A stretch of DNA of 37,608 nt from NCBI GenBank assembly GCA_003141915.1, contig PLNY01000361.1:4765-42372 (forward strand), read 5' to 3'. Below are positions 749 through 33,305 of this stretch, piece by piece. Below the pieces are notes generated by a model, which searched no databases, had not been told where the DNA came from, and saw nothing but the letters and a program-made list of their open reading frames with translations. The stretch comes from Anaerolineae bacterium (GTDB lineage Bacteria; Chloroflexota; Anaerolineae; Anaerolineales; Villigracilaceae). A program made the position numbers and the translations under genes. Position 1 is the stretch's first letter. Each line of letters begins with the position of its first letter.

Positions 749-759
749 GGGCATTCAGC

Positions 760-1946: not shown

Positions 1947-2300
1947 GGCAGGTGGGGGAACTAAATTCCCCTGCTTACTGACTAAATTGGCAGGCGGGGG
2001 AACTAAATTCCCCAGCTTACCAACTAAACCGGCAGGCGGGGGAACCAAATCCCCCAGCTTACTGACTAAATCGGCAGGCGGGGGAACTAAAGCCCCCTGC
2101 TTACTGACTAAATTGGCAGGCGGGGGAACTAAATTCCCCAGCTTACCAACTAAACCGGCAGGTAGGGGAACTAAATCCCCCTGCTTACCAACTAAACCGG
2201 CGGTCGGGGAACTAAATCAGTGGGCTGGGGAACTAAATCCCCCACAGAGGAACTAAGTCAGCAGGCGGGGGAACTAAATCGGTAAGGCTACCAACAAAAC
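1947..2300. repeat. Tandem array of 42-bp units (about 6 clean and 2-3 degenerate), each with a G-run/C-run hairpin; the [A/G]ACTAAA word is phased at 20-21 bp
   Basis: Unit starts at 1947, 1989, 2031, 2073, 2115, 2157 and 2199 give an exact 42-bp period. The consensus is GGCAGGCGGGGGAACTAAATTCCCCAGCTTACCAACTAAACC. The array degenerates towards 2300. Confidence 0.9.
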
Positions 2301-2322
2301 TGAAGGATATGCTCTGCAAGTT

Positions 2323-2409
2323 GTGCGTCGCACCTTACTCAACCGAGTTACCCTATAGAGTCGACGCTGCCGGTTTAATAGATTTTTCTGCCTGTGCGGT
2401 GCGACGCAC
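2323..2409. repeat. Palindromic ~87-bp element, copy 1 (12-bp perfect terminal inverted repeat GTGCGTCGCACC / GGTGCGACGCAC, 63-nt interior)
   Basis: The arms lie at 2323-2334 and 2398-2409. The same 11-bp arm core and spacing recur at 6065-6152. Confidence 0.8.
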
Positions 2410-2461
2410 CGCGCGCAAGCATATGCTGGCCGGAAAATGTCGCCGAGGATATGCCAAGCTG

Positions 2462-2516
2462 ATTAATCATCAAGCGTATTCTGGCTCAAATCCAGTTCGG
2501 CTAGGATTTTATTTCT
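2462..2516. repeat. Direct repeat DR1 (~50 bp), partner at 2937-2990
   Basis: ATCAAGCGTATTCTGGCTCAAATCCAGTTCGGCTA(G/T)GATTTTAT is shared almost exactly by both copies. Each copy lies just 3' of a minus-strand membrane-protein gene. Confidence 0.85.
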
Positions 2517-2581
2517 GAAAGTGTTTATCCTCGAAAGGATGAAGTAGAATTTTTGCCGCGGATTTAAAGGCAAGAGATCAA

Positions 2582-2815
2582 TCAACTGCGAAGGTTTTTC
2601 TGATCGTTGCCTCGAAGCAGGCGGGTGATTTCTTCAATCTGCCGTGATTGATCCATGATCTTTATAAACAGAATGAGTATGCCAACTCCGGTCATGAAGG
2701 CTCCCACATCTGCCCAGAGATGATTGGACGGATCGTACCCGATGACAACTATCAGCGGGCCAAATATTGCAAGCGCTGGAGTGAGGGGCAGAAGAAGGTT
2801 GATGAATGTTCTCAT
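2582..2815 (-). CDS. Small hypothetical membrane protein (77 aa, two predicted TM helices)
   Basis: An AAGGAG RBS lies 7 nt upstream of the ATG. There are two hydrophobic stretches (LLLPLTPALAIFGPLIVVIGY and VGAFMTGVGILILFI). I recognise no family. Confidence 0.6.
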   Translation of the reverse strand: MRTFINLLLPLTPALAIFGPLIVVIGYDPSNHLWADVGAFMTGVGILILFIKIMDQSRQIEEITRLLRGNDQKNLRS

Positions 2816-2936
2816 GTTGCATCTCCTTGTGGATCTGAAAATCGGAATCGTCCCTTACTTATATAAGGGCCGTATATCTAGCAGTCTGAGTGTCTGAGAC
2901 TCAAGTTCTACTGACATACCATTTTGCTTGCACCTA

Positions 2937-2990
2937 ATTATAATCAAGCGTATTCTGGCTCAAATCCAGTTCGGCTATGATTTTATCTTT
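2937..2990. repeat. Direct repeat DR2 (~50 bp), partner at 2462-2516
   Basis: See DR1. This copy lies 39 bp downstream of the stop of the 3028-3777 gene. Confidence 0.85.
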
Positions 2991-3027
2991 CCGTGATTAC
3001 AATGTTTGCATCCTTGCTAAGTTAGGT

Positions 3028-3777
3028 TTATTGAGAAAGAGAGCCAATCCATGTTTGAAAAGCACTTGAATATGCGATGAGTTTTCCTGCGGCCATGAAC
3101 AGAAAAACAATAAGGGTAATAAGCATAGCGCGTCTAACTCGCGGGTCAACGCCTTGAGACTGCCGGAGCACCCAATAATAGTATCCAAAAGAAGCCAGAA
3201 GGAAGACGCTTGACACCAAAGACAGCCATAGTGAGGATGAGAAGAAAAACAGACCGATTGCAATCATCAGAAGCAAAGAAAACAGGAGATACAGGAGATT
3301 TCGACTCTTAGTTGCTTTAGATGGAGGTCGAATAGTGACCCAAGATGCAAGAACATCCCTAATTTCCTTATAATCGTTTGCGTCAAGAGTTTTTGAAATA
3401 GCTAGTGTACGTGTCTTAGTGTTTGTCAGAACGCGAAGCGATGCGCTAGATTCTTCTATTGCGATTATTTCTTGTCGTTGTATCCGAACTTGTGGTTTTC
3501 GTATTTGGGTTCGGGCGATGTAATCGTCGCCAACTTCAATGCGGATCGATTCCCAGATTTCCTTGGTCTGCTTTAGGCCGCGCCTGATGCTTGATAGCAT
3601 ATATGTAACGCCGATTAGGATCGTTGCAAGTATTGCGATCAACTTATTATCCGGTAAAATCGAAACAACAAGGACCGCTGCACTGCATACAATTGCTGCG
3701 TAAAAGCTGCCCATTAACCAAAGATATCGAGTCTGAAGTTTTGCAAGTCCATTAGAAGAAAAGGAATAGGATTTCAT
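3028..3777 (-). CDS. Hypothetical polytopic membrane protein with a soluble beta-rich middle domain
   Basis: The ORF is open to 3822 (TTG). I prefer the ATG at 3777 (MKSYSF...). Two N-terminal TM helices are followed by a ~100-aa soluble segment and then 3-4 C-terminal TM helices. The gene sits in a visibly AT-richer region. Confidence 0.55.
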   Translation of the reverse strand: MKSYSFSSNGLAKLQTRYLWLMGSFYAAIVCSAAVLVVSILPDNKLIAILATILIGVTYMLSSIRRGLKQTKEIWESIRIEVGDDYIARTQIRKPQVRIQRQEIIAIEESSASLRVLTNTKTRTLAISKTLDANDYKEIRDVLASWVTIRPPSKATKSRNLLYLLFSLLLMIAIGLFFFSSSLWLSLVSSVFLLASFGYYYWVLRQSQGVDPRVRRAMLITLIVFLFMAAGKLIAYSSAFQTWIGSLSQ

Positions 3778-3845
3778 CTTGTTATGTACCTGCTTTCCGA
3801 GAATGATAGTATTTAATCCCAACCAGCGAACCAGTGATCATGAAT

Positions 3846-3892
3846 CCTAAAAACAAATAGCGTACTGGAATTTTATCTCCAGTACGCTATTT
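3846..3892 (-). terminator. Intrinsic terminator downstream of ssb
   Basis: On the - strand, AATAGCGTACTGGA-gataaaat-TCCAGTACGCTATT forms a 14-bp stem and is followed by TGTTTTT. Confidence 0.75.
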
Positions 3893-3899
3893 TATCAAC

Positions 3900-4286
3900 T
3901 TACGCTGCTTCGTATTCAGCTTGTTCTTCGTCCACCGTCATCACCGGCTCCTCGGCGGACTTCTTATCGAGGAACTGCATCATCAGCGCGATCACCTTGC
4001 TGAAATATTTGGTCTCACCGCCTTTGTCCTCGTACTTGTCCGTCTTGAGCCGGCCTTCGATGTAAACGAGACTTCCCTTCTTGAGATACTGCTGGGCGAT
4101 CTCGCCGAGTCTTCCCCACGCTTCGACGTTCACCCATTCGGTATATTCTTTGGTTTCGTTGCCGCTCTTCCAGCGTTGGCTAATGCCGAGACTGAAATGA
4201 GCCACCTTCTTTCCGTTGGGTGTGAAGCGGCTTTCCGGTTCCTTGCCGAGATATCCGATCAGTTGAACACGGTTTAATGCTGGCAT
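3900..4286 (-). CDS. ssb: Single-stranded DNA-binding protein (short, non-canonical C-terminus)
   Basis: 128 aa. NRVQLIGYLGKEPESRFTPNGKKVAHFSL...WVNVEAWGRLGEIAQQYLKKGSLVYIEGRL is a typical SSB OB-fold. A GGAGG RBS is present. The protein ends ...DEEQAEYEAA rather than D-D-D-I-P-F. Confidence 0.85.
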   Translation of the reverse strand: MPALNRVQLIGYLGKEPESRFTPNGKKVAHFSLGISQRWKSGNETKEYTEWVNVEAWGRLGEIAQQYLKKGSLVYIEGRLKTDKYEDKGGETKYFSKVIALMMQFLDKKSAEEPVMTVDEEQAEYEAA

Positions 4287-4399
4287 GTTTCCCTCCTTTC
4301 CTTCAGACTTTTAGAGTTCATGTTTTGTGTCATATCAAGTCTCCTTTTTCTCTAAAAGAACAATTGGGTGTGTCCGAACGGGTTATACTTTGTGCATTG

Positions 4400-4597
4400 C
4401 TAGCTTTCGGCAGGCGCCGCCGTGGATGGTTGCGTCCGCTTCAAAACGAGCATGCCCGTTTTCATCTCCACGACCTGGTAACCGTCAGGCACCGCATCGA
4501 GCGCACCTTCCTTGATCTCCTTCGAGAAGTAAAACATCTTTCCGTTGGAGTGCAGGTAGTAGGTCGTGCCTTTCGAGTTGCTGTGTGAGTAAGCCAT
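4400..4597 (-). CDS. Small hypothetical protein (65 aa)
   Basis: An AGGAG RBS lies 7 nt upstream of the ATG. The gene is on the same strand as ssb and directly upstream of it. I recognise no family. Confidence 0.5.
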   Translation of the reverse strand: MAYSHSNSKGTTYYLHSNGKMFYFSKEIKEGALDAVPDGYQVVEMKTGMLVLKRTQPSTAAPAES

Positions 4598-4674: not shown

Positions 4675-5508
4675 ATGTTAATCGTAACCAGGCTCGACGA
4701 ATTGCGCTCCGCCCGCTCCCTTCTGGACGGGAAGCTGGGTCTCGTACCGACGATGGGTTATCTCCACGAAGGGCATATTTCTCTTGTCCGCCGCGCCAAG
4801 GCTGAATGCGACTATGTTGCCGTGAGCATCTTCGTCAACCCGACTCAATTTGGACCCAACGAGGACCTCGCCAAGTATCCACGTGATTTGGACCGCGATC
4901 TGCATCTGCTCGAAGACGCAGGCGTGGACTTGGTCTGGACACCAACGCCCGAGGTGATGTATCCGTCCGGGTTTCAAACCTGGGTCGAAGTCGAGGAAAT
5001 GACGCGCCCGCTGGAAGGTGCTCAACGCCCCGGCCATTTTCGCGGCGTAACGACGGTTGTCACGAAACTGTTCAATGCGGTTCAACCAACGAAAGCTTAC
5101 TTTGGTCAAAAGGATGCGCAGCAAGCCGCGGTCATTCGGCGAATGACGGAGGATTTGAATTTCCCCATCGAGATCGTGGTTTGCCCAATCGTGCGTGAGC
5201 CGGACGGACTAGCCATGTCCAGCCGCAATATTTATCTTGATGCCCATCAACGCAAAGCCGCGACGGTTCTATATCGTTCGTTGAGCGCGGCGAAGGAAGA
5301 ATATGAAAAGGGCGAGCGCGATGCGGAAAAGTTGAGACGAAAAATGAAAGAAGTGATTGCGTCCGAGCCGCTGGCGCAAATGCAATATGTTTCCTGCGCG
5401 GATTACGATACGTTACAGGAGTTGGAGAAAGTTACGGGGAAGACTCTGCTTTCGATGGCGGTGTTCTTTGGGAAAACAAGGTTGATTGATAACTTTGTGT
5501 TGGAGTGA
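4675..5508 (+). CDS. panC: Pantoate--beta-alanine ligase (pantothenate synthetase)
   Basis: 277 aa. LVPTMGYLHEGHISLV (HIGH-type motif), FGQKD and SSRN motifs are collinear with PanC. Confidence 0.95.
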   Translation: MLIVTRLDELRSARSLLDGKLGLVPTMGYLHEGHISLVRRAKAECDYVAVSIFVNPTQFGPNEDLAKYPRDLDRDLHLLEDAGVDLVWTPTPEVMYPSGFQTWVEVEEMTRPLEGAQRPGHFRGVTTVVTKLFNAVQPTKAYFGQKDAQQAAVIRRMTEDLNFPIEIVVCPIVREPDGLAMSSRNIYLDAHQRKAATVLYRSLSAAKEEYEKGERDAEKLRRKMKEVIASEPLAQMQYVSCADYDTLQELEKVTGKTLLSMAVFFGKTRLIDNFVLE

Positions 5509-5626
5509 ATCACGATAAAAACATCGCGTTGCCTTTGGACACTGATGAATAAATCATTTTAGCTTTCTTTGGACACGGATTTCACAGACGACACGGAACA
5601 ACGCGGATTTTTAAAGATTTTCTTCG

Positions 5627-5772
5627 CTACCGTACACTTTATGCACGATGAATAAAAATAGAACACGGATGACGCTGATTCAGCCGATTTGCGCGGATGA
5701 AGCTTAAAAAAACTGCGTGCATCCGCCTCATCCGCTCTGATCCGCGTGCTATTTTTTTAGGATGTACGGTAG
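5627..5772. repeat. MITE-like block bounded by a 10-bp inverted repeat (CTACCGTACA / TGTACGGTAG) inside a patchwork of CACGGAT/GCGGAT-word repeats
   Basis: The inverted repeat lies at 5627-5636 and 5763-5772. An AAAGATTTTCT word occurs just outside both ends (about 5613 and 5775). The interior contains internally palindromic GCGGATGA.../...TCATCCGC segments. Confidence 0.5.
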
Positions 5773-5783
5773 AAAAAGATTTT

Positions 5784-6047
5784 CTATACTTGTTCAAACC
5801 GTTCCACCGGAACGACAAACAACGATCCGTGTTTCTCGACAGGCGCACTCATTGCAATGGTTTCGCGAATGAGTTTGATCGCCGAATCAACTTGTGCGTC
5901 ACTCACACCGAGCAGTAAAGTCACCACGCCGCTTCGCAGAAATCCGCCCGTCGAGGCGATGCGCGTGACGCGGTATTCTTCACTGGTCAGGGCACGCGTA
6001 AGCGCGTCGGCTTCGTTATCTTTGATAATCACAATGATCATTTTCAT
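5784..6047 (-). CDS. DarA/PstA (YaaQ, DUF970) family PII-like protein, short paralog (87 aa)
   Basis: MKMIIVIIKDNEADALTRALTSEEYRVTRIASTGGFLRSGVVTLLLGV...FVVPVERFEQV matches the cyclic-di-AMP receptor family pattern (TKLATTGGFL..GNTT...VLPV..F). An AGGAGG RBS precedes the ATG at 6047. The longer ORF to 6170 runs through the palindromic element. Confidence 0.75.
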   Translation of the reverse strand: MKMIIVIIKDNEADALTRALTSEEYRVTRIASTGGFLRSGVVTLLLGVSDAQVDSAIKLIRETIAMSAPVEKHGSLFVVPVERFEQV

Positions 6048-6064: not shown

Positions 6065-6152
6065 TTGCGTCGCACCTTAAGGGTAGAGACAAATCTGTTG
6101 AACGAGAAATTTCTTTGTTTGGATAAGTCCCGTTAAGTATGGTGCGACGCAA
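6065..6152. repeat. Palindromic ~88-bp element, copy 2 (TTGCGTCGCACC / GGTGCGACGCAA, 64-nt interior), in the spacer between the two darA-like genes
   Basis: The arms lie at 6065-6076 and 6141-6152. The reverse complement of the interior shares TACT(T/C)AAC...TTA(T/C)CC and AA(C/T)AGATTT(G/T)TCT blocks with copy 1. Confidence 0.8.
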
Positions 6153-6188
6153 CCTCTGAGGGCGCAACATCGCTGTGCCCTTCCCTTG

Positions 6189-6524
6189 TTATATCTCCTC
6201 GAATCTTTCCACCGGCAGTGCAAATACGGTTGCGCCGCCGACCGTCACCGGAATCGGTGTGGGCATTGGCAATGGCGAACCCTCCAATGGCATGGATAAA
6301 TATTCGACGCGCTGACGACAAGATTTTCGCAATTCGCGCAATACATCTTCCTCCCGGCCTTTGGGCAGGCCGATCAAGATCGTTGCGTTGCGCCGACCGA
6401 GAAATCCGCCCGCGCTTGCCAGATACACAACCGGCGCACCGAAAGAACTAACCGCGCGCGTGGCGACATCTAAATCCTGTTCCTGCACAATCGCCAGAAT
6501 CAAAAGATGCATTGGATTGTCCAT
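6189..6524 (-). CDS. DarA/PstA (YaaQ, DUF970) family PII-like protein, full-length paralog (111 aa)
   Basis: LLILAIVQEQD...LASAGGFLGRRNATILIGL...VTVGGATVFALPVERFEEI closely parallels the B. subtilis DarA pattern (...VEVGGATVFVLPVDEFHQF). A GAGGAG RBS is present. Confidence 0.8.
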   Translation of the reverse strand: MDNPMHLLILAIVQEQDLDVATRAVSSFGAPVVYLASAGGFLGRRNATILIGLPKGREEDVLRELRKSCRQRVEYLSMPLEGSPLPMPTPIPVTVGGATVFALPVERFEEI

Positions 6525-6547
6525 AATCTGCTCCTCATGTCTTCAAT

Positions 6548-6672
6548 GTCATTGCGAGCGACCCTGAGCGAAGTCGAAGGGAAGCGTGGCAATCTCCTGT
6601 TTATATGTTACTTGAGATTGCCACACCGAAAGAACACAGTGCAGGCAACCCCTTCGGGGTCCCGCGATGACA
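6548..6672. repeat. Composite inverted copy of the dispersed GTCATTGCGAG...GGCAATCTC repeat family
   Basis: Unit 6548-6596 (GTCATTGCGAGCGACC...GCGTGGCAATCTC) faces inverted unit 6614-6672 (GAGATTGCCACACCGAAAGAACACAGTGC...CGCGATGAC). The two can fold into one long hairpin. Confidence 0.8.
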
Positions 6673-6701
6673 TCACGGCTATTAATATTAGCATATCACA
6701 T

Positions 6702-9080
6702 TTAAGTCATGGATACGATTAACGGATTGTTATCGGTAATCGTAATTTTCTTGCCGTTCCGAAACGTGATTTCCGTTTGTTCGAGTCCGCGCACCACTTT
6801 CAAACCTTTATATAAAATCGTCACGGGCCACGCAAACGGATTCTTGCCTTCGAGCCGCACGCGTTCATCGGAAAGAATCGTCACGCCCAATGTTTGCAAA
6901 AAGAAACCGACGGGCGCAAGTCCATTCAATGCGCCGCGTTCGCCGAGTCCGTTTCCCGTCTCGGCGTGATAACGCTGATAGAAAGCATGATTTTGTTTAA
7001 GGCTTTGGATGACTGCGTTCATCAGATGCGCTGTCAGCCGCGCGGCTTCGCTTCGGAATCCATAAGACAGCAATCCTTCGCCGATCAATATGTTCCACGG
7101 CAGATGAATGCTCATTGCAACCGCGTCCGCTTTCGGGTCCGGGACGAGCGGCAACGCCGGAATGCCAAACGGCCGGCCAAAATATTCCGCATCGTTAAGC
7201 GAGCGGCCGATCATCACTTGCGCGCGTTGCGAATCGGGAATGCGCGCCCAAAGCGGCGTGAAGAGCGTGATGTCTTCGCTTGCCATATTTTCAATACTGA
7301 TTAATACTCGATCCAGTTTATCCAAACCTTGAATGCTGATGCGACCGATTTTCGTAAATACTTTTTGAGTGGTGGCAACCAGTCCGCCGCTTCTCCACCG
7401 GAATTGATTTTCTTCGATCACCTCGACATCGCCCCGGCCTTTGGTCACCAGATCGCTGATTTCGATGGTTGGCCGTTGCGCCGCCGGATTTTTAGTCTGC
7501 ACTTCGATCAACAAACGAACCGGCTGCTCAAACTCCAACTTGGGATGCATGTTGCCCGGCCCTTTATGTTTCGCGATCAATTTTCCGGCCTGACAAATAT
7601 TGGTGACGCGGTCCCGATAACTATATAATGCAGAGCGCGCGTCCCAGGCCGCATCCACGGATGATTTAAGTTTCTCTGCCTCTACTTCGAGCAATGGAAT
7701 TTCACTGGCTTTGTTCAGTCGCTTTGCCATTCGGATGAGGCATTGCGCCTCGTTGTACATCATGGCTTCCAACGCGGGATCGTGCATCACGGAAATATCC
7801 ACTCCTTGTGACCATGGATGCCAGACATCGAAAAGCGGATTGTCTTCAAAGCCGGTCTGGAGTACATGATCCCAAGATGGCAAACCATCGCCATCAGAAT
7901 CATGCTGCGGCGAAAGCCAGTCCCAGAAAAAGGCAAGCAATTTGGGGAAGGCTTCGCTGATAAAAGTTTCATCTTCCGTTTGTTGAAAATATTTCCATGC
8001 CAAACTTGCCAGCATCGGCGCGGCGGATAATTTTCCGCGTTGACCGGCGATGCCGGGTTTATGATCTATCGAGCCGTCTTTGGTTTGAATAAAAAGAAAA
8101 TTATTGATCAGTCCGCGTGATAATTCCTGTGTGGCTGGAATCACATTGGAAAGATAATAACTTTCCAGCGGTGTCTGTCCGCTCCAACCCGGCGGATAGT
8201 CGCGTCCGTCGCCTTTGTGAGAAAAACCCTGATCCGGTTGTCGGGACTGCACGAAGGATGGATTCGGCAATTGCTTATCGGGAGTAAAAAATAATCCCAA
8301 TGCGGCGCGCTGACTGAACGCGAGCGCCGCATCCCAATCCGGATCGCCGGTGCGAATATCGGGCGTGTCGCCCGCGTCCAGCAATTCAATGTGAGCGCGT
8401 TCCGCTTCCCATGGGCGACTGGCAGTGCGTCGCGCTAAATCGAACGAAGCTTCCGCTGAATCGGTGGAAGCAATTGCCCAGCTCACCTGACGGCTTGAAC
8501 CTGGATCGAAATCCAATGCCAATGTCAGTGATGGATGCGGACCAGCACCAAACTGCGGGCCGCCGGTCATAAAGATGACGGGGAAGAGTCCGGTAGTCTC
8601 GCCCGCGAGAACGTTGACCATTTGTTGTTGAGAATCTTTCAGAGGTTGTCCATCCAGCGGAGTCAGCATTCCGCATAAGTCAACTGTAATCTTGCGTGCG
8701 AATGCAGTACGATTGTTAAGAATAAGCCTTCCCGCGAGCGCATGAGATTCGGGAACCCAATATTCAACTGTGACTTCCAAGCCTTCAAATGGAGAACATT
8801 CCAGCCAGAGAAAGTTTGGATAGAATCGCCGCAGGTACGGTGATGCGAAAAATTCAGCAGGGCCGGTAATGGTTTTGCCCAGTTCCCCAAAGCGATAGAA
8901 GAGGCGCATGGTGCGGGCGCGCAGTCCATACGTTGTGCGAACAGCCAGCGCAGCCGGTTCGCCCGCGCCGATTTCAAGCTCCCAGATATGATCATTCACG
9001 TAATCCGGCTTCGACAGACGAAAGTCTGCGGCCAGAGTGAGGGACAGTGGATCGCCGGGTCGGAGATTCCAATCGCGCAT
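6702..9080 (-). CDS. Large (alpha/alpha)6-barrel glycoside hydrolase-like protein (GH63/MGH1-like)
   Basis: 792 aa. The central/C-terminal region has DGDGLPSWDHVLQTGFEDNPLFDVW (compare the G-x-DNSP-x-D motif) and ...YHAETGNGLGERGALNGLAPVGFFL, typical of GH63/GH37/GH15-clan enzymes. I do not recognise the N-terminal ~350 aa. Confidence 0.55.
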   Translation of the reverse strand: MRDWNLRPGDPLSLTLAADFRLSKPDYVNDHIWELEIGAGEPAALAVRTTYGLRARTMRLFYRFGELGKTITGPAEFFASPYLRRFYPNFLWLECSPFEGLEVTVEYWVPESHALAGRLILNNRTAFARKITVDLCGMLTPLDGQPLKDSQQQMVNVLAGETTGLFPVIFMTGGPQFGAGPHPSLTLALDFDPGSSRQVSWAIASTDSAEASFDLARRTASRPWEAERAHIELLDAGDTPDIRTGDPDWDAALAFSQRAALGLFFTPDKQLPNPSFVQSRQPDQGFSHKGDGRDYPPGWSGQTPLESYYLSNVIPATQELSRGLINNFLFIQTKDGSIDHKPGIAGQRGKLSAAPMLASLAWKYFQQTEDETFISEAFPKLLAFFWDWLSPQHDSDGDGLPSWDHVLQTGFEDNPLFDVWHPWSQGVDISVMHDPALEAMMYNEAQCLIRMAKRLNKASEIPLLEVEAEKLKSSVDAAWDARSALYSYRDRVTNICQAGKLIAKHKGPGNMHPKLEFEQPVRLLIEVQTKNPAAQRPTIEISDLVTKGRGDVEVIEENQFRWRSGGLVATTQKVFTKIGRISIQGLDKLDRVLISIENMASEDITLFTPLWARIPDSQRAQVMIGRSLNDAEYFGRPFGIPALPLVPDPKADAVAMSIHLPWNILIGEGLLSYGFRSEAARLTAHLMNAVIQSLKQNHAFYQRYHAETGNGLGERGALNGLAPVGFFLQTLGVTILSDERVRLEGKNPFAWPVTILYKGLKVVRGLEQTEITFRNGKKITITDNNPLIVSMT

Positions 9081-23176: not shown

Positions 23177-23491
23177 GGGTTTTGATGAAACTATAACGAG
23201 GGTTTAAGCCTGTTCTTGCAGTAATATTCCCACTTTTTCATTCTATATAAACCATAGACAGGCTTTTTGAAAACTCTGCAACATGCGTAAAGATGAAGAA
23301 AATAAATTCCCAAGATTTGCCTCTTGAAATTTTGAAAAACTCCCTATACGTATATCAATAGTGCGCGGGGTTTTGTATTTATCGGTTTCCAATTCAATTC
23401 ATTACAGGTAAAAGACAACTTCAGGCGGCTCCAAGGACTCGTCCAACGAGTTTCTCCCAGACATCGGAGGTCTATCGAAGTGTTTGGCGGA

Positions 23492-23690
23492 GTCAAGGGA
23501 AGGCTCAGCGAGTTCAAGGAAACACGGAGTGAGTGCAAGGAAGCGCAGAGCAACTGCAAGGAAGCGCAGAGTAAGTGCAAGGAAGCGCGGAGCAAGTGCA
23601 AGGAAACGCAGAGTAAGTGCAAGGAAGCGTAGAGCAACTGCAAGGAAGTCCGGAGTAAGTCTAAGGAAGAGCGGAGCAAGTGCAAGGGAT
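23492..23690. repeat. Tandem 21-bp repeat array (~9.5 units, consensus TGCAAGGAAGCGCAGAGTAAG)
   Basis: Units start at 23492, 23513, 23534, 23555, 23576, 23597, 23618, 23639, 23660 and 23681. The central units are 85-100% identical by eye. Confidence 0.9.
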
Positions 23691-24030
23691 TACTCGGCAG
23701 CCGGAAGGGAGAATTCCCCGATGGTCAAATGTAAGACATTTGACCCTTTGCATAAGTCTGCAAAGCAAAGGCTGAATCAAAATCTCTGCCGCGAATTACA
23801 CGAATTCGCACGGATTTTTAAATAAATCGCAGCATCACCCGAGAAAGCAGCGGTTACCCGCCTCGACGACTTTGCCGAGATACAGGTCAATCACATGATC
23901 CGCGAGGCGTTCGGTTTGGATACCCCACGGACGCTTAAGTGCAGCAATTCTTTGGGCACGGTTCCAGGAGGATGCAACCCCAAAAAAATAACGTGTACTT
24001 TCCAAACGCTTACCACTAACCACTAAGCAG

Positions 24031-24888: not shown

Positions 24889-25352
24889 TGGAAGAGTTAG
24901 TTGAATATCGCAGGCAATTGATGGATCGGTTACCCGCCGCGGCAAAAGAATTCCGCACGGCATGTCTCGCGGTGAAAGATCCGTTTGCGCCGATTGAAGA
25001 TGGATGGAATGTGCATCAATTGGCCGCGCATACGCGTGACGTGGATAAGACGCTCTACGGCGCCCGCGCCCGCCGCACCATCCAGGAAGATAATCCTGAA
25101 TTTCAAAGCTTCAACGGCGACGCGTATATGGCCGGGCATTATGATCCAAAGGAATCACTGCGCGTGATATTGGATGATTTGGTTTCAAGCATCGAAGAGT
25201 TGACCAAAATGTTGCGCGGCTTGTCGGGCGAAGCCTGGGCAAGAGAGTCGCATCATGCAACCCAGGGCGGCGGCCTGACGCTTCAGATGTGGGTCGAGCG
25301 CAGTCTCAAACACATCGAGGAACATTTGGCAACGGTGAAGAAGGTGCGATAG
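24885..25352 (+). CDS. DinB-family (DinB_2-like) protein
   Basis: 155 aa. A 4-helix-bundle-like pattern carries His residues (WNVHQLAAHTRD ... SLKHIEEHL). The start overlaps the SDR stop by 4 nt (ATGA). Confidence 0.6.
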   Translation: MMEELVEYRRQLMDRLPAAAKEFRTACLAVKDPFAPIEDGWNVHQLAAHTRDVDKTLYGARARRTIQEDNPEFQSFNGDAYMAGHYDPKESLRVILDDLVSSIEELTKMLRGLSGEAWARESHHATQGGGLTLQMWVERSLKHIEEHLATVKKVR

Positions 25353-25357
25353 CAAAT

Positions 25358-25496
25358 GTCATTGCGAGCCCCGCGTAGTGGGGCGTGGCAATCTCATATT
25401 TTTGTTCAAGAGATTGTTTGTAGGTTACCGAGATTGCCACACCGAGAGAACACAGTGCTTCGTCGTGGCGCTTAGCATCACTCCTCGCAATGACAT
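25358..25496. repeat. Composite inverted copy of the GTCATTGCGAG...GGCAATCTC repeat family between convergent genes
   Basis: Unit 25358-25395 (GTCATTGCGAGCCCCGCGTAGTGGGGCGTGGCAATCTC) faces unit 25430-25496 (GAGATTGCCACACCGAGAGAACACAGTGC...CTCCTCGCAATGACAT). Confidence 0.8.
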
Positions 25497-25509
25497 CCAA
25501 AGTTAACGG

Positions 25510-26136
25510 TTACCAAAGCGGGAAATGAATGAATGCCGCGAGCCACATCAGGAACGGCTGATGAACTTGCAGAACGATCCATCCCATCAAAATGCCGACG
25601 ATGAAACCTGCCACGATATCGGACACATAATGGACTCCCATCGCGACGCGCGCCAGCGAAACCAGCGGTGCCCAAATCCATAAGATCAACGCGAGCCAAC
25701 CGGGGCCCAAACCGGCCGCGACCATCGCGATCATAAATGCGCGCGCGGCGTGACCGGATGGGAACGAATGCGGATCGGTGTTGCGATAAATGCTTCCCCA
25801 CTCGCCTGCGGGCCGCCTTCGGCGAATGATGAATTTGAGAGACATCACCAGCGCGGCTAATATCGAAATGCCGATCAGTTCAATAATGGCCCATTGCTTC
25901 CAGAAGGAATTTCCAAACCACCATAAAATGATCAGCGCCGCGCCCCAAAACCACGAGTCGCCGGAATGGGCGAAGAAGATGGCGATGTCGCGCAGCGCGC
26001 CCGGCTTTTCAGCCACGCGCAATTGATCCGAAAGACGAGCATCGAGTTTGAGCAGAGAAGTTAGATTCATGGGCCTTTCAAAAAACATATCACTCTGAAA
26101 CGATAAGCCTTTCGGGCTTTTATCCCAGAGTGACAT
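25510..26136 (-). CDS. PAP2-superfamily phosphatase (membrane)
   Basis: All three PAP2 motifs are present: KFIIRRRRP, PSGH and SLARVAMGVHYVSD. The start is uncertain (alternatives at 26088 and 26070). Confidence 0.85.
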   Translation of the reverse strand: MSLWDKSPKGLSFQSDMFFERPMNLTSLLKLDARLSDQLRVAEKPGALRDIAIFFAHSGDSWFWGAALIILWWFGNSFWKQWAIIELIGISILAALVMSLKFIIRRRRPAGEWGSIYRNTDPHSFPSGHAARAFMIAMVAAGLGPGWLALILWIWAPLVSLARVAMGVHYVSDIVAGFIVGILMGWIVLQVHQPFLMWLAAFIHFPLW

Positions 26137-26157
26137 GTCGAGATAAAGATTGATTCG

Positions 26158-27063
26158 CTATTTCTTTTTTGATTTTGCTTTTACTGCCGGTTTCTTTGCC
26201 GCAGGCTTTCTTTTTTCAACAGGCTTTTTCTTTGCCGCAGGCTTTTTGTTCGCCGCAGGCTTTTTGTTCGCAGATAGCTTTCGCGAAGCAGATTTGACCT
26301 GTTTCTCCAGGTCAGCGCGCATCATTTCCAGTTGATGAGGCTTATCCACATCCATGCACGGTTCGGCATAAGGCCAGATAATGGCGCGGCCCTTAATACC
26401 GATCTTCTTACTCACGCGCTCTACAAAATCCTGAAGCGTTGCCTGCCGCGTAAGAAGCAAATAGAGCGTATCCAGACCCATGACGCCTGCTTGAGCCACA
26501 GGATCCTTACGCCGGGTAATCAGCGCATCCCACATCTTCAGATGTTCGCTTGCCATGCGGACGTGTACGATGTTGATGTCCGCCCCACAAACCTCCATGT
26601 CCTTAAGTTTGGTATACGTTCGTTTCGAGTTGGGATAGCGCGCTTCCATCACCTCACGCGGACAGACGCCGTAATAGATGTCATCGCTGGTTTCCATGCA
26701 GGTGTTGATCAGCCAATCCACCATCTCCGCTTTGAGGGCGGGAATGTCCGAAGAGACCAGCAGGACATGTTTGTTCTTGGGATGTAATTCCAGCGATTTA
26801 TTCATGCCCGCAATCAGGTTGTCCAGCATCCGGCCTTGATTGGACAGATAATAAAGCGGCTTCTTACACTTCAAGTTGCTCTTCGGCGAAAGGCCGGTCA
26901 CGATGACGTTATCCACGTTTTTGGCGCCGCCTAATGCGTCGAGCGTCCATTGGATCATCGGCTTACCGGCGATGTCCACCATCGCTTTTGATTCGCCTTT
27001 TGTATAAGCATACAACGGCTCATCGGGTTGCGGGATTCCACCTGCGGTGATTACTGCATCCAT
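26158..27063 (-). CDS. MobA-like/GT-A-fold nucleotidyltransferase with a Lys/Ala/Pro-rich C-terminal tail
   Basis: 301 aa. The N-terminal AVITAGGIP...KAMVDIAGKPMIQW is an NTP_transferase signature. The last ~48 aa read KQVKSASRKLSANKKPAANKKPAAKKKPVEKRKPAAKKPAVKAKSKKK. Confidence 0.7.
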   Translation of the reverse strand: MDAVITAGGIPQPDEPLYAYTKGESKAMVDIAGKPMIQWTLDALGGAKNVDNVIVTGLSPKSNLKCKKPLYYLSNQGRMLDNLIAGMNKSLELHPKNKHVLLVSSDIPALKAEMVDWLINTCMETSDDIYYGVCPREVMEARYPNSKRTYTKLKDMEVCGADINIVHVRMASEHLKMWDALITRRKDPVAQAGVMGLDTLYLLLTRQATLQDFVERVSKKIGIKGRAIIWPYAEPCMDVDKPHQLEMMRADLEKQVKSASRKLSANKKPAANKKPAAKKKPVEKRKPAAKKPAVKAKSKKK

Positions 27064-27099
27064 AGTTATCTCCTAATATCCTCGATTTGTGTAATGACG

Positions 27100-28008
27100 T
27101 CAATTGATTTCCTGCAGCTGCGGCTCGTATTTGAGCTTCGCCAACAATTCAGTGTATTCGTCGCGCGTCAACGAACGCTTCTTTCCGGAGACGGCAACGA
27201 ACGCGGCTTCCATCATGTTCGTCCCGAACGAACGGCCATCCAACACAGGCGTGGTGGTCATCAAATATTTGATCCCGCATTGCTTGAACAATGCCACGTC
27301 TTCGGGTGTGGTTGTGTTTGTCACGATGATCTTGCCCTGCATATCGTCAGGCAGGTGGCGCCTGATGTAAAGACAGTCGCCTGCGATCACCGTGGCATCG
27401 TGATAATATTTTTCAAACTTCGGAATGCGAACATCCTGTTTTTCACCCGTCGGGTAGACCCATTCAAAGGGCAGGCGTCCAGCGATAGGCATCAAAACTG
27501 CGGCGAAATTCTTGAGCTGTTGCGCAGTATGCAACGCGATGGGAATGCCCAGCCCAAACATCAGGTCGCCAAACGTGCATTCGTATCCTGCGTTAAAAAA
27601 GCCGCTTGACATTCCCCAGCGATCCGCGCCGCTCACCACGAAAACTTTTTTGCCGCCCGCCTTGTCGATGTAATCGCCGATCTTTGAGTCAAGGAGAGCG
27701 GCGGAACGACTCTCCAGCGTATACTTTAATCCGACGCCGTCTACGATCGGTGTCTCTTTAACAAAGCGGATCATCGGCCGGACCGAATAGAGCGGATACC
27801 ATTTATTGTCCACCATCAATCCCAAATCTGCGCCGCCCACTCCGAAAGCATCCACCTTGCCGTCCAGTTCCTGATACTTGCGTGCGGCGGCTTCCATGTC
27901 TCCATCGGTGCCGATGCGTTCGATGCTGACAGTTTCCCCTAATAAATTTACTTCAACGGCTTTATCTCGCTTGGATGAACCAATACTAATGCTCACGGCA
28001 CGTTTCAT
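27100..28008 (-). CDS. Conserved protein of unknown function (family often auto-annotated as quinate 5-dehydrogenase-like)
   Basis: MKRAVSISIGSSKRDKAVEVNLLGETVSIERIGTDGDMEAAARKYQELDGKVDAFGVGGADLGL matches, from memory, a conserved ~300-aa family in Firmicutes and Chloroflexi. An AAGGAG RBS precedes the ATG at 28008. Confidence 0.5.
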   Translation of the reverse strand: MKRAVSISIGSSKRDKAVEVNLLGETVSIERIGTDGDMEAAARKYQELDGKVDAFGVGGADLGLMVDNKWYPLYSVRPMIRFVKETPIVDGVGLKYTLESRSAALLDSKIGDYIDKAGGKKVFVVSGADRWGMSSGFFNAGYECTFGDLMFGLGIPIALHTAQQLKNFAAVLMPIAGRLPFEWVYPTGEKQDVRIPKFEKYYHDATVIAGDCLYIRRHLPDDMQGKIIVTNTTTPEDVALFKQCGIKYLMTTTPVLDGRSFGTNMMEAAFVAVSGKKRSLTRDEYTELLAKLKYEPQLQEIN

Positions 28009-28073
28009 AAAACGATCTCCTTGTTCCAAACATCGATGAATTTATTTCAGTATACACCCAACCGGATGGTCTC

Positions 28074-30107
28074 TCAAGATTTTGGCTTTTGGCCCCATAA
28101 AGAGAAGAGGAAGGTCGCGCCCTTACCTGCTTCGCTTTCGACCCAGACGCGCCCGCCATGCACTTCGATAATCCGCTTGACGATGGATAACCCGGCTCCC
28201 GTTCCTTCCGCTTGCGCGTCAAGTTTATTGAATAAACCAAATATGCGTTCGTGATATTCCGGCGCGATACCGATACCATTATCGCGCACAAAAAAGATTG
28301 GTTTGCCGTCTCCGCCATGTTCCCGCAATCCAATTTCGATGCGCGGTTTTGGCTGATCGCCCATAAACTTGGCGGCGTTGTCAATCAGGTTTTGAAGAAC
28401 CTCGATCAGCCGCCGGCGGTCTCCATACACATTTGGCAAATCGGGTTGGACGTCAATTTGAACGCCGCGCGCTTCAATACGTCCCTGAACCAGTTCCATC
28501 GCCTCATTTACCAACGCCTCAAATGGAATAAACTCGGACGGATTCGCCAGCCGGCCAATGCGTGAAAGTTCCAGCAATTCGTTGAGCAAGATTTGCATTT
28601 TATCGCTGGCAGCCGAGATGCGTTCCATATCCTTCGTCAGATGCTGGGTATCTCCTTTTTCCGCGTCTTCACGGAGGAAGCCCAAAAATCCTTTGATGGT
28701 GATAAGCGGTGATTTAAGATCGTGTGAAACCGTGTAGGTAAAGCGCTCCAATTCTGCGTTCTTGGCTTCGAGTTCATTAATCAACACTTCACGTTCCGCC
28801 TCGGCCCATTTGCGCACCGTAATATCCCGCACCATTCCCAGCACCCGGTCTTCGCCGCTGGCAATCAGGCGCGATTCGTAATCATGGAGGCCATCTTTGC
28901 CGGGTAGTTGATACTCGAACGCATAGGTCTGATCGGTCAGCAGCGTTCTTTCGATTCCAAATAACGTTGGCGAGGAGATAAATTCGGGCATTACCTCTCG
29001 TATATTTTTTCCCAGGAATTCTTTGGGGGAAAGCGGCGGGCCGATTCCTTCTGCTTTGAAGAAATCCATGAAGACGCCGTTCTTATCCAGTTCAAAGATC
29101 ATATCGGGAATGGCATTCAAGAGCGCTCGGTTACGGGCTTCGGCTTGACGGAGTTCCTCCTGAACCCTTTTCTCTTCCGTGGTATCGTAAAAAGTTGAAA
29201 GAATACAAGCCTGGTTTTCAAGCTGGATCAGCTCATAAAAAGCCAGCATATTGTGTTTATCACCATTTTGGCTGACGAAGCGACATTCCATATCTTGAAT
29301 GGAACGCTTTTCCTTCAACGCTTTCACAAATTGACGCCGGTCTTCCGGATTCTTCCATAGACCAAATTCGAGCAGTGTATGGTCAATCGCTTGGCTGGGA
29401 TTCAATCCACTTAGCTTCCAAAAAGACTCGTTGGCTTCCACAAAACGGCCATCCTCCAGTGTGGTAATCGAAATGGCCAGTGGACTGGCACGGAAGAACT
29501 TGCGAAAACGCTCTTCGCTCACGCGGACAGCCGTCATATAGTGTTGCAAACTATTCAAGATCAAATACATTAAGATTCCGGAAACCATAAACATGATGGT
29601 CATGCCGCGCGTAACATCGTAAATGTTGTCCATGGTGGTATGCAATAAGCCGTGTGTTTCGAGAATTGCCATACCCCAGATGGATAGTATGCTCAGTAAA
29701 CTTAATCCGGCAGTTGCCTGCCATCCCAATAACAATCCGCATACTAACACGATGATCAGTTCACCCGCCACAGATGTATCGCGTACGCCTGAACCGATTA
29801 ATGCCTGATATACTGTCACCAACCAGCTGCTGAGCACCAAAATGATGCTGGCCGCCTGTGTATACCCTCGATGAATGAACCAGATCAGAACAAGAATGAC
29901 GAGAACGAGCGCTTCAAGGGAAATGTTGGAATTATCAAGCAGACTACTTCCTTGTATAAGATTCCCAATGATTATGCATAAAAGGAGAGCAATCCCACTC
30001 CAGGCAATGAAGTTCAACAGCTGAGCGCGGCGATTCTTTTCCGGATCGTCAAACTGCGGCGGCGTGATGAACCTGCCAATTCGTTCGAATACTTCGGCTC
30101 TCTTCAT
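28074..30107 (-). CDS. Membrane-bound PAS-domain sensor histidine kinase (no adjacent response regulator)
   Basis: 677 aa with about 6 N-terminal TM helices and two PAS-like segments. The H-box is FTYTVSHDLKSPL. N, G1 and G2 boxes are present (NLIDNAAKF, VRDNGIGI, GTGAGLSIV). Confidence 0.9.
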   Translation of the reverse strand: MKRAEVFERIGRFITPPQFDDPEKNRRAQLLNFIAWSGIALLLCIIIGNLIQGSSLLDNSNISLEALVLVILVLIWFIHRGYTQAASIILVLSSWLVTVYQALIGSGVRDTSVAGELIIVLVCGLLLGWQATAGLSLLSILSIWGMAILETHGLLHTTMDNIYDVTRGMTIMFMVSGILMYLILNSLQHYMTAVRVSEERFRKFFRASPLAISITTLEDGRFVEANESFWKLSGLNPSQAIDHTLLEFGLWKNPEDRRQFVKALKEKRSIQDMECRFVSQNGDKHNMLAFYELIQLENQACILSTFYDTTEEKRVQEELRQAEARNRALLNAIPDMIFELDKNGVFMDFFKAEGIGPPLSPKEFLGKNIREVMPEFISSPTLFGIERTLLTDQTYAFEYQLPGKDGLHDYESRLIASGEDRVLGMVRDITVRKWAEAEREVLINELEAKNAELERFTYTVSHDLKSPLITIKGFLGFLREDAEKGDTQHLTKDMERISAASDKMQILLNELLELSRIGRLANPSEFIPFEALVNEAMELVQGRIEARGVQIDVQPDLPNVYGDRRRLIEVLQNLIDNAAKFMGDQPKPRIEIGLREHGGDGKPIFFVRDNGIGIAPEYHERIFGLFNKLDAQAEGTGAGLSIVKRIIEVHGGRVWVESEAGKGATFLFSLWGQKPKS

Positions 30108-31766: not shown

Positions 31767-32663
31767 ATGACGACAGATACCGCTGAAAATATCAAGAGCG
31801 AAAAAGTCAGGTTCCCTGTTCATGGCTGGCTGGGATTGATCCTGGCCGGAATCTTCTGGTTCCTTAACTGGAGCCTGAGCGGGCCGCGTACGAACTGGGG
31901 TTTCTTTCCCATGTGGCTCGGCTATTGTTTGACCGTTGATGGATTGGTCTTTTGGCGGACGCGCACGTCTTTGCTCACACGCAGTTGGCGGAAATACATC
32001 GGGCTGTTTATGATTTCCGCACCGGTCTGGTGGCTCTTTGAAGCGCTCAACGTCCGTACACAAAATTGGGTTTATCTCGGCATCCATGGTTTCACGCCTT
32101 TGCAATATGCAATTTGGACAACGATCAGTTTCACGACGGTCATTCCCGCCGTGTTTGGAAGCGCTGAGTTCATTGCCAGTTTTGATTTCATCAAGCGCAT
32201 CAAACGCGGACTTGTGATTGGCCCCGACAAACCGACAACGATCAGCTTCTTCGTGATCGGCTGGATCATGCTTATCCTGACGATGATCTGGCCGAATGTT
32301 TTCTTTCCGTTCATCTGGCTGTCTCCCTATTTCATCATTGAACCGCTTAACATCTGGCTTGGATATCGTTCGTTGGCAGGCTGGACGAAGACCGGCGATT
32401 GGCGCCCGGTCATTTCGCTCTGGCTGGGCGTGTTGATGACGGCCTTCTTCTGGGAAATGTGGAATTACTTATCCTATCCAAAATGGATCTATCATGTTCC
32501 GTGGGGCGGATGGTTCCATATCTTCGAAATGCCATTGCTTGGTTATGGTGGCTATCTGCCGTTCGCGCTTGAGTTATATGCGATCTATCATTTGGTCGTT
32601 GGAATGCTGGGAGATAAAAGGACGGATTACATTCGAGCGGCTCCGGAGACAACGAATCTCTAA
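31767..32663 (+). CDS. Hypothetical polytopic membrane protein
   Basis: 298 aa with about 7-8 TM segments, rich in Trp. I recognise no family. Confidence 0.55.
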   Translation: MTTDTAENIKSEKVRFPVHGWLGLILAGIFWFLNWSLSGPRTNWGFFPMWLGYCLTVDGLVFWRTRTSLLTRSWRKYIGLFMISAPVWWLFEALNVRTQNWVYLGIHGFTPLQYAIWTTISFTTVIPAVFGSAEFIASFDFIKRIKRGLVIGPDKPTTISFFVIGWIMLILTMIWPNVFFPFIWLSPYFIIEPLNIWLGYRSLAGWTKTGDWRPVISLWLGVLMTAFFWEMWNYLSYPKWIYHVPWGGWFHIFEMPLLGYGGYLPFALELYAIYHLVVGMLGDKRTDYIRAAPETTNL

Positions 32664-32711: not shown

Positions 32712-33305
32712 ATGCTTCCTGTATTCATAACCAACCATCTTGATTCATGGGTTCTATATGCGGCTTATATCATCTGGCTATTGCCGGAATTCATCGCATC
32801 GTTTACAGACAGAATGTCCTCGAATGCAAAAGTGAGTGACGGTGCTTCCCATGTGGTCATCTTCGTTTCCATTTGGCTTGAAATTTATGCGGGATACTGG
32901 TCCGCTTTTGTTGTTCGACCCCTTGCAATCCCGTGGCATCGGACTCTTCTATTTGCCGTCGGCATCTTTCTGATGCTGGCAGGCGTGGCGTTTCGCTGGT
33001 ATTCCATCCGCGTGCTGGGAAAATATTTTACGCGGCAGGTCGCCATTCAACCGGGACAAACCGTCGTGGAGAACGGCCCGTATCGCTTGATCCGCCATCC
33101 ATCCTATAGCGGCGCATTGCTTACCATATTTGGGTTGGGATTGGCTTTCACGAACTGGCTGAGTCTGATCGGCGTTGTGACACTTGCATTTGTCGGATAT
33201 AGTTATCGCGTCTGGGTGGAGGAAAAGACTCTGGTCAATGCATTGGGCGAGCCGTATCGTCAATATATGAAACGCACCAAACGCTTCATCCCGTTTGTGT
33301 ATTAG
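32712..33305 (+). CDS. Isoprenylcysteine carboxyl methyltransferase (ICMT)/phospholipid methyltransferase family membrane protein
   Basis: 197 aa. VENGPYRLIRHPSYSGALL ... VEEKTL...GEPYRQYMKRTKRFIPFVY is the ICMT/PEMT C-terminal signature. Confidence 0.8.
   Translation: MLPVFITNHLDSWVLYAAYIIWLLPEFIASFTDRMSSNAKVSDGASHVVIFVSIWLEIYAGYWSAFVVRPLAIPWHRTLLFAVGIFLMLAGVAFRWYSIRVLGKYFTRQVAIQPGQTVVENGPYRLIRHPSYSGALLTIFGLGLAFTNWLSLIGVVTLAFVGYSYRVWVEEKTLVNALGEPYRQYMKRTKRFIPFVY

Follow-up and report, generated by a model that had tools for sequence, protein, structure and literature searches.

Pathways in which a head group is activated by nucleotidyl transfer are known from CofC, acting on 2-phospholactate or phosphoglycerate, and from IPCT/DIPPS, TarI/TarJ and LicC. 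Here we describe a locus of similar outline in an Anaerolineae bacterium, on a stretch of 37,608 nucleotides (the window; contig PLNY01000361.1 of assembly GCA_003141915.1). Its minus strand carries, in order of reading, genes for a PAS histidine kinase (HK), a conserved protein known in public sources as 'quinate 5-dehydrogenase' (UNK), a MobA-like nucleotidyltransferase (NTP) and a membrane protein of the PAP2 type (PAP2). Like the described systems, the locus sets a small soluble nucleotidyltransferase beside membrane enzymes, and the CofC, CobY, MobA and IspD models match NTP weakly. Unlike them, the window cluster has no CDP-alcohol transferase or CofD-like partner, and only one related genome (G417) has a CDP-OH_P_transf gene, which is divergent. 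The source assembly measures 3.1 Mb and is 77.5% complete; the window lies on its contig C191.

The described proteins closest to UNK are the reductases of acyl-acyl carrier protein (acyl-ACP reductase, AAR), PigE, TamH and the carmabin TAD. PigE is described as reducing thioesters to aldehydes, as domains of the thioester reductase (TR) type do (PMC8341465), and TamH, of the same transaminase-reductase layout, as converting a C12 acid to a C12 amine together with TamA (PMC9594044). The product of such chemistry has a described place in bacterial membranes: long-chain alkylamines are known in one lipid class, the N-glyceroyl-alkylamine phosphoglycolipids, which are signature lipids of Deinococcus-Thermus. 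The main phospholipid reported from Thermus and Meiothermus is of this class and is akin to that of Deinococcus (PMC3035268, PMC9636437).

We propose that UNK, NTP and PAP2 form one membrane-lipid functional module in Anaerolineae, with HK as an occasional neighbouring regulator, and we give this proposal even chances. The trio probably helps build an unusual membrane lipid.

Conservation of the UNK-NTP-PAP2 trio in Anaerolineae

The locus has the following features:

28074..30107, minus strand: HK, open reading frame (ORF) of 677 aa; multi-transmembrane PAS histidine kinase
28049..28077, minus strand: sigma-70-like promoter match in the HK-UNK gap (TTGAGA-17-TATACT, 10/12); possible own promoter of the trio, weak
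27100..28008, minus strand: UNK, ORF of 302 aa from the ATG at 28008; public label 'quinate 5-dehydrogenase'
26158..27063, minus strand: NTP, ORF of 301 aa; MobA-like nucleotidyltransferase, predicted soluble
25510..26136, minus strand: PAP2, ORF of 208 aa; predicted integral-membrane lipid-phosphate phosphatase or phosphotransferase

The longest UNK ORF spans 27100-28029 from a TTG start; the 302-aa form used here is covered over 100% by relatives of 301-302 aa. With the start at 28008 the gaps in the row are 65, 36 and 21 bp, as in the sequence-only reading of this DNA, which had grouped all four minus-strand genes as one cluster. To follow that cluster in relatives, we searched 16 kb around the UNK orthologue in 20 loci (17 from family f1, two from f2 and one from f7) with the window proteins as tblastn queries. 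UNK, NTP and PAP2 keep the same order and strand in all 20 loci and all three families, an arrangement that exceeds chance. HK, directly upstream of UNK in 11 of them, is a lineage-restricted neighbour outside the stable core. Thus, the cluster as first drawn survives as a trio, without its kinase. Convergent genes for DinB and a short-chain dehydrogenase/reductase (SDR) recur in seven of the 20 loci, with an SDR match alone in one more; their conservation is local synteny. HK itself carries PAS, HisKA and HATPase_c domains in a Pfam/NCBIfam scan and about 6-7 hydrophobic segments in residues 1-185. No response-regulator gene adjoins it among the ORFs of the window, the rest of the genome not having been searched for one.

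A wider sample of 151 Anaerolineae genomes, in which the UNK-NTP neighbourhood was judged by hand from coordinates, shows which genes hold together most tightly. NTP is present in 50 of these genomes and UNK in 57; among the 50 genomes with NTP, UNK stands next to it in 24, and G417 additionally has a single intervening gene. When UNK has an identity of at least 48%, a threshold set after the data were seen, NTP is also present in 43 of 45 genomes, and the two exceptions are genomes 73% and 83% complete. PAP2 still follows NTP in seven of nine loci where UNK and NTP lie apart, and NTP-PAP2 is therefore the core and tightest pair, with UNK as its frequent third member. The row in G417 reads UNK, a DAGK_cat/YegS-type lipid kinase, NTP and PAP2, and genes for a CDP-alcohol phosphatidyltransferase (CDP-OH_P_transf) and a lipid-A-type acyltransferase (Lip_A_acyltrans) diverge from this cluster. 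A candidate NTP-PAP2 fusion in G325 (395-aa ORF, 550-aa open frame) resolved into adjacent genes, NTP stopping at locus position 5781 and PAP2 lying in another frame.

UNK also occurs elsewhere in the class. Several Anaerolineae families have a separate UNK gene between sbcC and glyQS, an uninformative context. In four further Anaerolineae loci (L133, L134, L137 and L141) genes for an alpha/beta-hydrolase, an MFS transporter and a metallo-beta-lactamase-fold protein form a conserved row that ends in a UNK paralogue of about 45% identity, and a pyridoxal-phosphate-dependent (PALP) gene converges on this paralogue; this context gave no functional lead.

Six peat metatranscriptome runs cover parts of the stretch, and the contigs of four were compared. 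A 2393-nt contig of run X1 spans 25300-27004 and bridges PAP2 and NTP, as does an X4 contig (26103-26272), and a second X1 contig (26975-27544) bridges NTP and UNK. These contigs bear on the operon structure that the initial reading had left to RNA sequencing. They are consistent with co-transcription of the trio without proving it, because they show neither strand nor a single transcript and RNA libraries may contain DNA. No RNA contig crosses the UNK-HK gap, where the X1 contigs stop at 28021 and restart at 28249, a coverage gap that proves nothing. A promoter and terminator scan found no terminator-like site in any of the three intergenic gaps. Neither class of site was counted above shuffled sequence; promoter-like sites in the region numbered 9 against 5.4 (standard deviation 2.6) in shuffles, which is not clearly above, and the match at 28049..28077 is therefore weak.

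NTP and PAP2

The assignment of the third gene as MobA-like is borne out by an NTP_transf_3 match of 43.6 bits against a cut-off of 27. NTP scores below every curated NCBIfam cut-off (MobA 40.3 against 164, CofC 18.8 against 105, CobY 20.4 against 250), the MocA, KdsB, GlmU and IspD models being likewise far from theirs. It is free of hydrophobic segments, and its last 50 or so residues form a tail in which 43% are Lys or Arg. A search for longer forms at E<=1e-10 returned none, which is weak evidence. The closest solved relative is PDB 2dpw (TTHA0179, 'hypothetical protein'; E 1.2e-25, residues 24-245), and by sequence NTP ranks as an orthologue-like relative of this Thermus thermophilus protein. 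The two share the NTP_transf_3 superfamily, and orthologue-like genes occur in all 101 Deinococcota genomes sampled; the window protein differs in adding the lysine-rich tail. The literature we searched puts no function of TTHA0179 on record. In two Meiothermus loci (L166:6947-7486 and L167:5436-5975) a conserved 179-aa ORF without a Pfam match lies directly after the NTP orthologue, in the position that PAP2 has in Anaerolineae.

The fourth gene had been read as a membrane PAP2 phosphatase, which fits its domain score (69 bits against a cut-off of 27.2) and its roughly five hydrophobic segments. With PgpB, LpxE and SepP it shares the Pfam domain, the multi-transmembrane topology and three catalytic motifs: KxxxxxxRP at 101-109, PSGH at 126-129 and, read by eye, ARxxxxxHxxxD at 161-172, with Ala replacing the Ser of SRxxxxxHxxxD. 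The PDB matches are LpxE (6ebu, E 1.1e-10) and YodM/PgpB (5jki, E 4.7e-6). It differs from all three in scoring far below their equivalog cut-offs (SepP 55.9 against 250, PgpB 23.3 against 261, LpxE 16.6 against 177), and because of this its substrate would not be assignable from the curated equivalogs.

Shared presence of UNK and NTP in three phyla

The association of UNK with NTP extends beyond Anaerolineae as shared presence in genomes. Among 101 Deinococcota genomes UNK occurs in 99, TR in 100 and the NTP orthologue in 101. A second phylum was sampled with 251 genomes from the GTDB phylum of Thermoanaerobacter sp. A7A, which itself has all three genes; the sample holds UNK in 192 genomes, NTP in 190 and TR (at E<=1e-30) in 167. 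When the lists were compared by hand, 186 genomes had both UNK and NTP, six UNK only, four NTP only and 55 neither, and UNK was present in 165 of the 167 TR genomes. UNK and NTP thus occur together in genomes of three phyla. Within Anaerolineae the distribution of TR differs from that of the trio (families f78, f80 and f3 have TR in 4/4 genomes and UNK in 0/4, whereas f79 and f93 have UNK and NTP with TR in 0/2 and 0/4), and UNK is therefore independent of TR in this class.

To examine gene order in other phyla, we scanned species-representative genomes with a UNK pattern built from a 17-row alignment. The scan gave at least 601 places, from which 80 UNK loci of other phyla were kept and searched with the window proteins as tblastn queries (E<=1e-4). 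The records are titled Coriobacteriia, other Actinomycetota, Bacillota (Thermoanaerobacter, Phascolarctobacterium, Peptococcaceae, Symbiobacteriaceae, Limnochordales and Brassicibacter), Meiothermus, Thermaceae, Chthonomonadales, Fimbriimonadaceae and Vulcanimicrobiota, among others. The sequence-only reading had asked whether UNK travels with NTP_transf_3 and PAP2 genes outside its own phylum; as neighbours they do not, NTP and PAP2 standing beside UNK in none of the 80 loci, although the genomes still hold UNK and NTP together. The commonest UNK neighbour in these loci is TR, directly beside it in 42 of the 80.

This pattern could also arise from synteny without a shared pathway. NTP and PAP2 would then serve carrier-lipid recycling or wall polymers, with tasks such as the dephosphorylation of undecaprenyl diphosphate or phosphatidylglycerol phosphate, and UNK would be unrelated to them. 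The best curated matches of PAP2 would suit such tasks, being the undecaprenyl-diphosphatase SepP, PgpB and LpxE, all below cut-off; UNK is separate from the pair in about half of the class sample and never beside it in the other phyla. We nevertheless find this explanation fairly unlikely. UNK and NTP share genomes almost perfectly in the 251-genome sample, where they are not neighbours, NTP accompanies a close UNK in nearly all Anaerolineae genomes that have one, and the order of the trio is kept without exception in the relatives' loci of three families.

Fold and family of UNK

No Pfam or NCBIfam family matches UNK at E<=0.01. At least 7996 of 8000 scored sequences are relatives, the best 120 all at least 77% identical, and clustering at 50% identity leaves 905 representatives of the family (E<=0.001), with cross-phylum identities of 40-47%. 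Close relatives bear public labels of Anaerolineales. The ESM Atlas returned only clusters of the same family under the same label. Stand-alone homologues of 46% identity are also recorded from Heimdallarchaeaceae (Asgard archaea; cluster P0126), on contigs of up to 101 kb.

A UNK model built from 74 diverse sequences reached a pLDDT of 97 and a pTM of 0.93, against a pLDDT of 33 for the single-sequence model. The fold search that the first reading of the locus had recommended was run on it by exhaustive comparison, and AAR (6jzq) came closest (Z 13.7 over 244 residues, root-mean-square deviation 4.6, 12% identity), followed by the carmabin TAD (9e4s, Z 11.4). The next tier, at Z 8.8 or below, mixes glutamate dehydrogenases, LacI, sugar-binding proteins, malic enzyme and shikimate dehydrogenase (8.1). 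Foldseek gave weak matches with TM-scores up to 0.51, and phmmer and profile searches of the PDB with UNK gave nothing below E 0.3. The model thus places UNK as a structural relative of the AAR-type acyl-thioester reductases, with their two-lobed fold and without their catalytic Cys and GxGxxG. In the 74-sequence alignment no column exceeds 27% Cys, and the loop after strand 121-124 reads S-A-x-D-R-x-G-M. Because the catalytic Cys and GxGxxG are missing, UNK should be incapable of covalent thioester reduction in the manner of AAR. Its conservation lies elsewhere, in about 30 invariant or nearly invariant positions that are mostly polar or Gly and include R31, D49, D90, K95, E99, R130, D148, D211, K226, N264 and E267.

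TR has what UNK lacks. An alignment of TR from 29 loci shows an invariant GxGxxG (G160, G163, G166), Cys292 and His9, so that TR reads as a catalytically intact member of the AAR-type reductase family. UNK is tied genomically to such true family members, AAR, PigE, TamH and the carmabin TAD being the described ones, by the adjacency in the 80 loci and by fusions; it differs from them in the two catalytic elements, in having no sequence-profile similarity and in being about 40-70 residues shorter. TR also exists in the window's own genome, as a stand-alone gene on contig C432 (5795-6913) whose product shares 44% identity with the TR domain fused to UNK in other Chloroflexota. A complex prediction of UNK with this TR scored 0.01 against a mark of 0.32, which is evidence neither way. 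On the same contig (L052) a response regulator with a GGDEF domain (4886-5785) adjoins TR, and beyond it a protein exceeding 1500 aa, with at least seven GAF domains (1-4533), runs off the contig end. In a record titled Actinomycetes (L068), tandem UNK copies of 42% and 46% identity (6087-6947 and 7001-7894) are followed by TR.

In a FastTree phylogeny of 129 UNK sequences (SH-like supports), the stand-alone forms all group together (support 100), separate from both fused types. The 39 Anaerolineae copies make up a single clade (95), within which the Anaerolineae paralogues are nested on long branches; its sister group is Deinococcota, with weak support (74). Because of this position in the stand-alone clade, which also holds the TR-adjacent forms, the trio-type UNK is the main orthologue of the family and no diverged side branch.

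The fold and the partnership together raise the alternative that UNK is not an enzyme at all. As a dead TR paralogue it would be a structural or regulatory partner of TR, and its neighbourhood with NTP and PAP2 would be secondary. An AAR-like fold stripped of Cys and GxGxxG agrees with this, as does the fusion or adjacency to TR in many lineages. We judge it distinctly unlikely, since UNK is kept with NTP where no TR was found (the genomes of f79 and f93) and since the invariant positions and cross-phylum identity go beyond the usual constraint on a scaffold.

Partners and fusions of UNK and TR

We characterized the neighbours of UNK outside Anaerolineae with a Pfam scan of 142 ORFs from 17 of the 80 loci. 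In loci of the Bacillota type the order is coaX, dus, a helix-turn-helix (HTH) protein of about 180 aa, UNK, TR, greA and lysS. These neighbours had been taken for fab/acc genes from their ORF sizes, and Pfam gave coaX, dus, HTH, greA and lysS instead. The Vulcanimicrobiota loci read dus, Aminotran_3, SRPBCC, TR, UNK, an amino-acid permease, greA and lysS. In a Symbiobacteriaceae locus (L127) the gene after UNK encodes 875 aa that combine Aminotran_3 and TR in a single frame. Counting this locus, 11 of the 80 have an Aminotran_3 gene.

Fusions add partners of two more kinds. TR is fused in frame to the acyl-phosphate:glycerol-3-phosphate acyltransferase PlsY (G3P_acyltransf) in Meiothermus G442 (L173:4418-6325, 635 aa) and in the 2.2-Mb genome G490 (L174:5063-6724, 553 aa); we found no description of a PlsY-TR fusion in the literature searched. 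A third Deinococcota genome (L175) has a PlsY-like stretch immediately upstream of its TR. The 570-aa ORF of that locus, considered as a further fusion, gave no Pfam match, and large TR open frames in Deinococcota are not all fusions. In the four members of cluster P0125 an alpha-oxoamine synthase of the BioF/Kbl/serine-palmitoyltransferase type is fused to UNK.

Some of these partners would also suit a non-lipid role, in which UNK and TR act on an amino or cofactor intermediate related to biotin or amino acids and the link to lipids is coincidental. The alpha-oxoamine synthase fusion speaks for it, as do a BirA-UNK fusion found in a single record (P0302, 585 aa), the amino-acid permease of the Vulcanimicrobiota loci and the placement of the Bacillota-type UNK-TR pair within a birA / ECF-S / coaX / dus ... 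greA / lysS neighbourhood. The coaX, dus and lysS surroundings, however, we take from Bacillus gene order to be a housekeeping block, and we count them against this role. The in-frame fusion of TR to PlsY, the lipid-binding-type SRPBCC gene in the same cluster and the partners in Anaerolineae (PAP2, DAGK-type kinase, CDP-alcohol phosphatidyltransferase and acyltransferase) point away from it as well, and we regard it as very doubtful.

Origin of the public name of UNK

In other Chloroflexota (families f18, f34 and f55) UNK makes up the N-terminal half of fusion proteins some 690 aa long. The C-terminal half of these fusions gives a weak Pfam Shikimate_DH match, scores 187.8 bits with the NCBIfam PigE model and 61.9 bits with an acyl-ACP reductase model, and finds PigE (4ppm, 3e-30) and AAR (6jzq, 4e-13) in the PDB. 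Among the longer UNK relatives, PF01488 (Shikimate_DH) is present in eight of 11. Stand-alone UNK proteins are also named 'quinate 5-dehydrogenase' in public sources, and we infer that the name was passed to UNK from the fused reductase domain, because it is this partner that matches Shikimate_DH. The initial suspicion that the label had no experimental backing was therefore well placed: UNK matches no family, and the label leads back to the fusions. That UNK is a genuine quinate or shikimate 5-dehydrogenase is next to impossible, for although stand-alone members bear the label and shikimate dehydrogenase (2hk9, Z 8.1) is among the fold matches, this Z lies in a background tier common to LacI and sugar-binding proteins, UNK has no Shikimate_DH, Shikimate_dh_N or aroE/ydiB match at E<=0.01 in Pfam or NCBIfam and no conserved glycine-rich dinucleotide loop in its second domain, and the fused reductase accounts for the name.

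Other long proteins with a UNK part were also recorded. P0301 (620 aa) joins an N-terminal half of about 320 aa without a Pfam match to a UNK part of 68% identity, and P0303 (1024 aa) carries a GAF/PAS histidine kinase and a partial UNK in one frame. These two and P0302 may each be a real fusion or a gene-calling read-through.

Other features of the window

At 23344-23825, two overlapping 113-aa ORFs on opposite strands have highly repetitive translations (SLHLLRASLQLL..., RKRRVSARKRGASARK...), which points to a tandem DNA repeat between a MerR gene and an SDR gene. Downstream of a divergent GH4 glycosidase gene, a 298-aa hydrophobic-looking protein without a Pfam or NCBIfam match (31767-32663) is followed by a membrane methyltransferase of the ICMT/PEMT type (32712-33305).

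A candidate pathway for membrane-lipid synthesis

We place the module of UNK, NTP and PAP2 in membrane-lipid metabolism because of the PgpB/LpxE-like PAP2, the lipid kinase, phosphatidyltransferase and acyltransferase of the G417 locus, the PlsY-TR fusions and the SRPBCC, transaminase and alpha-oxoamine-synthase partners. The latter two partners point to enzymes for long-chain amines or amino-ketones. In a pathway of this kind TR, encoded elsewhere in the genome, would reduce acyl-ACP or acyl-phosphate to a fatty aldehyde, which a transaminase, where present, would turn into a long-chain amine. UNK would act by binding or converting one of the intermediates of this pathway, with no thioester chemistry involved; the large number of invariant polar residues in UNK leads us to expect a ligand site. 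As the sequence-only reading suggested, UNK might also supply the substrate that NTP activates. NTP, tethered to the membrane by its basic tail, would activate a phosphorylated polar intermediate as a nucleoside diphosphate derivative. The lipid intermediate so formed would then have its phosphate removed or transferred by PAP2, in the way that PgpB acts on phosphatidylglycerol phosphate, and the product would be an unusual phospholipid. The envelope or head-group role suggested in the sequence-only reading fits the PAP2 relatives, the G417 locus and the PlsY-TR fusions; its kinase is not a stable member, and the TR partner had not been foreseen.

Several observations weigh against the module and its lipid role. 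No CDP-alcohol transferase or kinase stands beside the trio in the window. NTP and PAP2 adjoin UNK in none of the 80 loci of other phyla. Their shared presence, counted in raw genome numbers, may stem from a few deep events, and near-universal presence in Deinococcota does not discriminate. TR comes without UNK in some Anaerolineae families and is missing from others that have UNK and NTP. The kinship of UNK with TR rests on one predicted model, and hhalign gave a probability of 0.8% and no homology between UNK and the TR domain, a weak test with only four close sequences in the TR profile. The RNA contigs that bridge the trio carry the limits of strand and DNA content already given.

A more specific candidate for the product comes from the lipids of the phyla in which these genes are widespread. 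Under it, UNK, the TTHA0179-type NTP and the AAR-like reductase with a transaminase, joined in Anaerolineae by PAP2, would be genes for N-glyceroyl-alkylamine phospho(glyco)lipids. We put this forward tentatively, expecting it to fail more readily than to hold. TR and the transaminase would make the alkylamine, NTP would activate a phosphoglycerate-type unit by a logic like that of CofC, UNK would handle the glyceroyl or amide step, and PAP2 would trim or transfer a phosphate. The known analogue is CofC, which activates 2-phospholactate. By analogy, the phosphodiester at the 2'-OH of the glyceroyl suggests nucleotidyltransferase activation of a 2-phosphoglycerate-type unit. N-glyceroyl alkylamine lipids reportedly dominate several Bacillota lipidomes, according to Bale et al. 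in 2025. Moorella thermoacetica is described as having N-glyceroyl alkylamines (PMC13274423), and for the Thermus phosphoglycolipid a publication of 2022 says of the enzymes that make its third chain and head group that they 'have not been identified' (PMC9636437). We found no paper assigning alkylamine-lipid genes in the literature searched, and the work of Bale et al. may contain gene predictions.

Alkylamine lipids are documented in two phyla, and it is in these that our samples show the widest spread of UNK, NTP and TR. Two points stand against the alkylamine assignment: UNK occurs in 76% of the Clostridia-type phylum sample, much more broadly than the known range of the lipid, and we found no lipid data for Anaerolineae.

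The Anaerolineae cluster is one of the local forms taken by a gene set that extends over several phyla, with known enzyme kinds arranged around a large family without a model. UNK represents a very large and slowly evolving family, wrongly named in public records. The analysis traces the wrong name to its probable source and places the predicted fold beside the acyl-thioester reductases, and independent genomic signals tie UNK to a nucleotidyltransferase and a PAP2 phosphatase as well as to PlsY and enzymes that form fatty amines. Should the alkylamine assignment be true, peat Anaerolineae, Coriobacteriia, Armatimonadota, Vulcanimicrobiota and even some Heimdallarchaeia would make N-glyceroyl-alkylamine lipids. 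The outcome is a concrete, testable gene set for a branch of bacterial membrane-lipid synthesis, with Thermus and Deinococcus as genetically tractable hosts.

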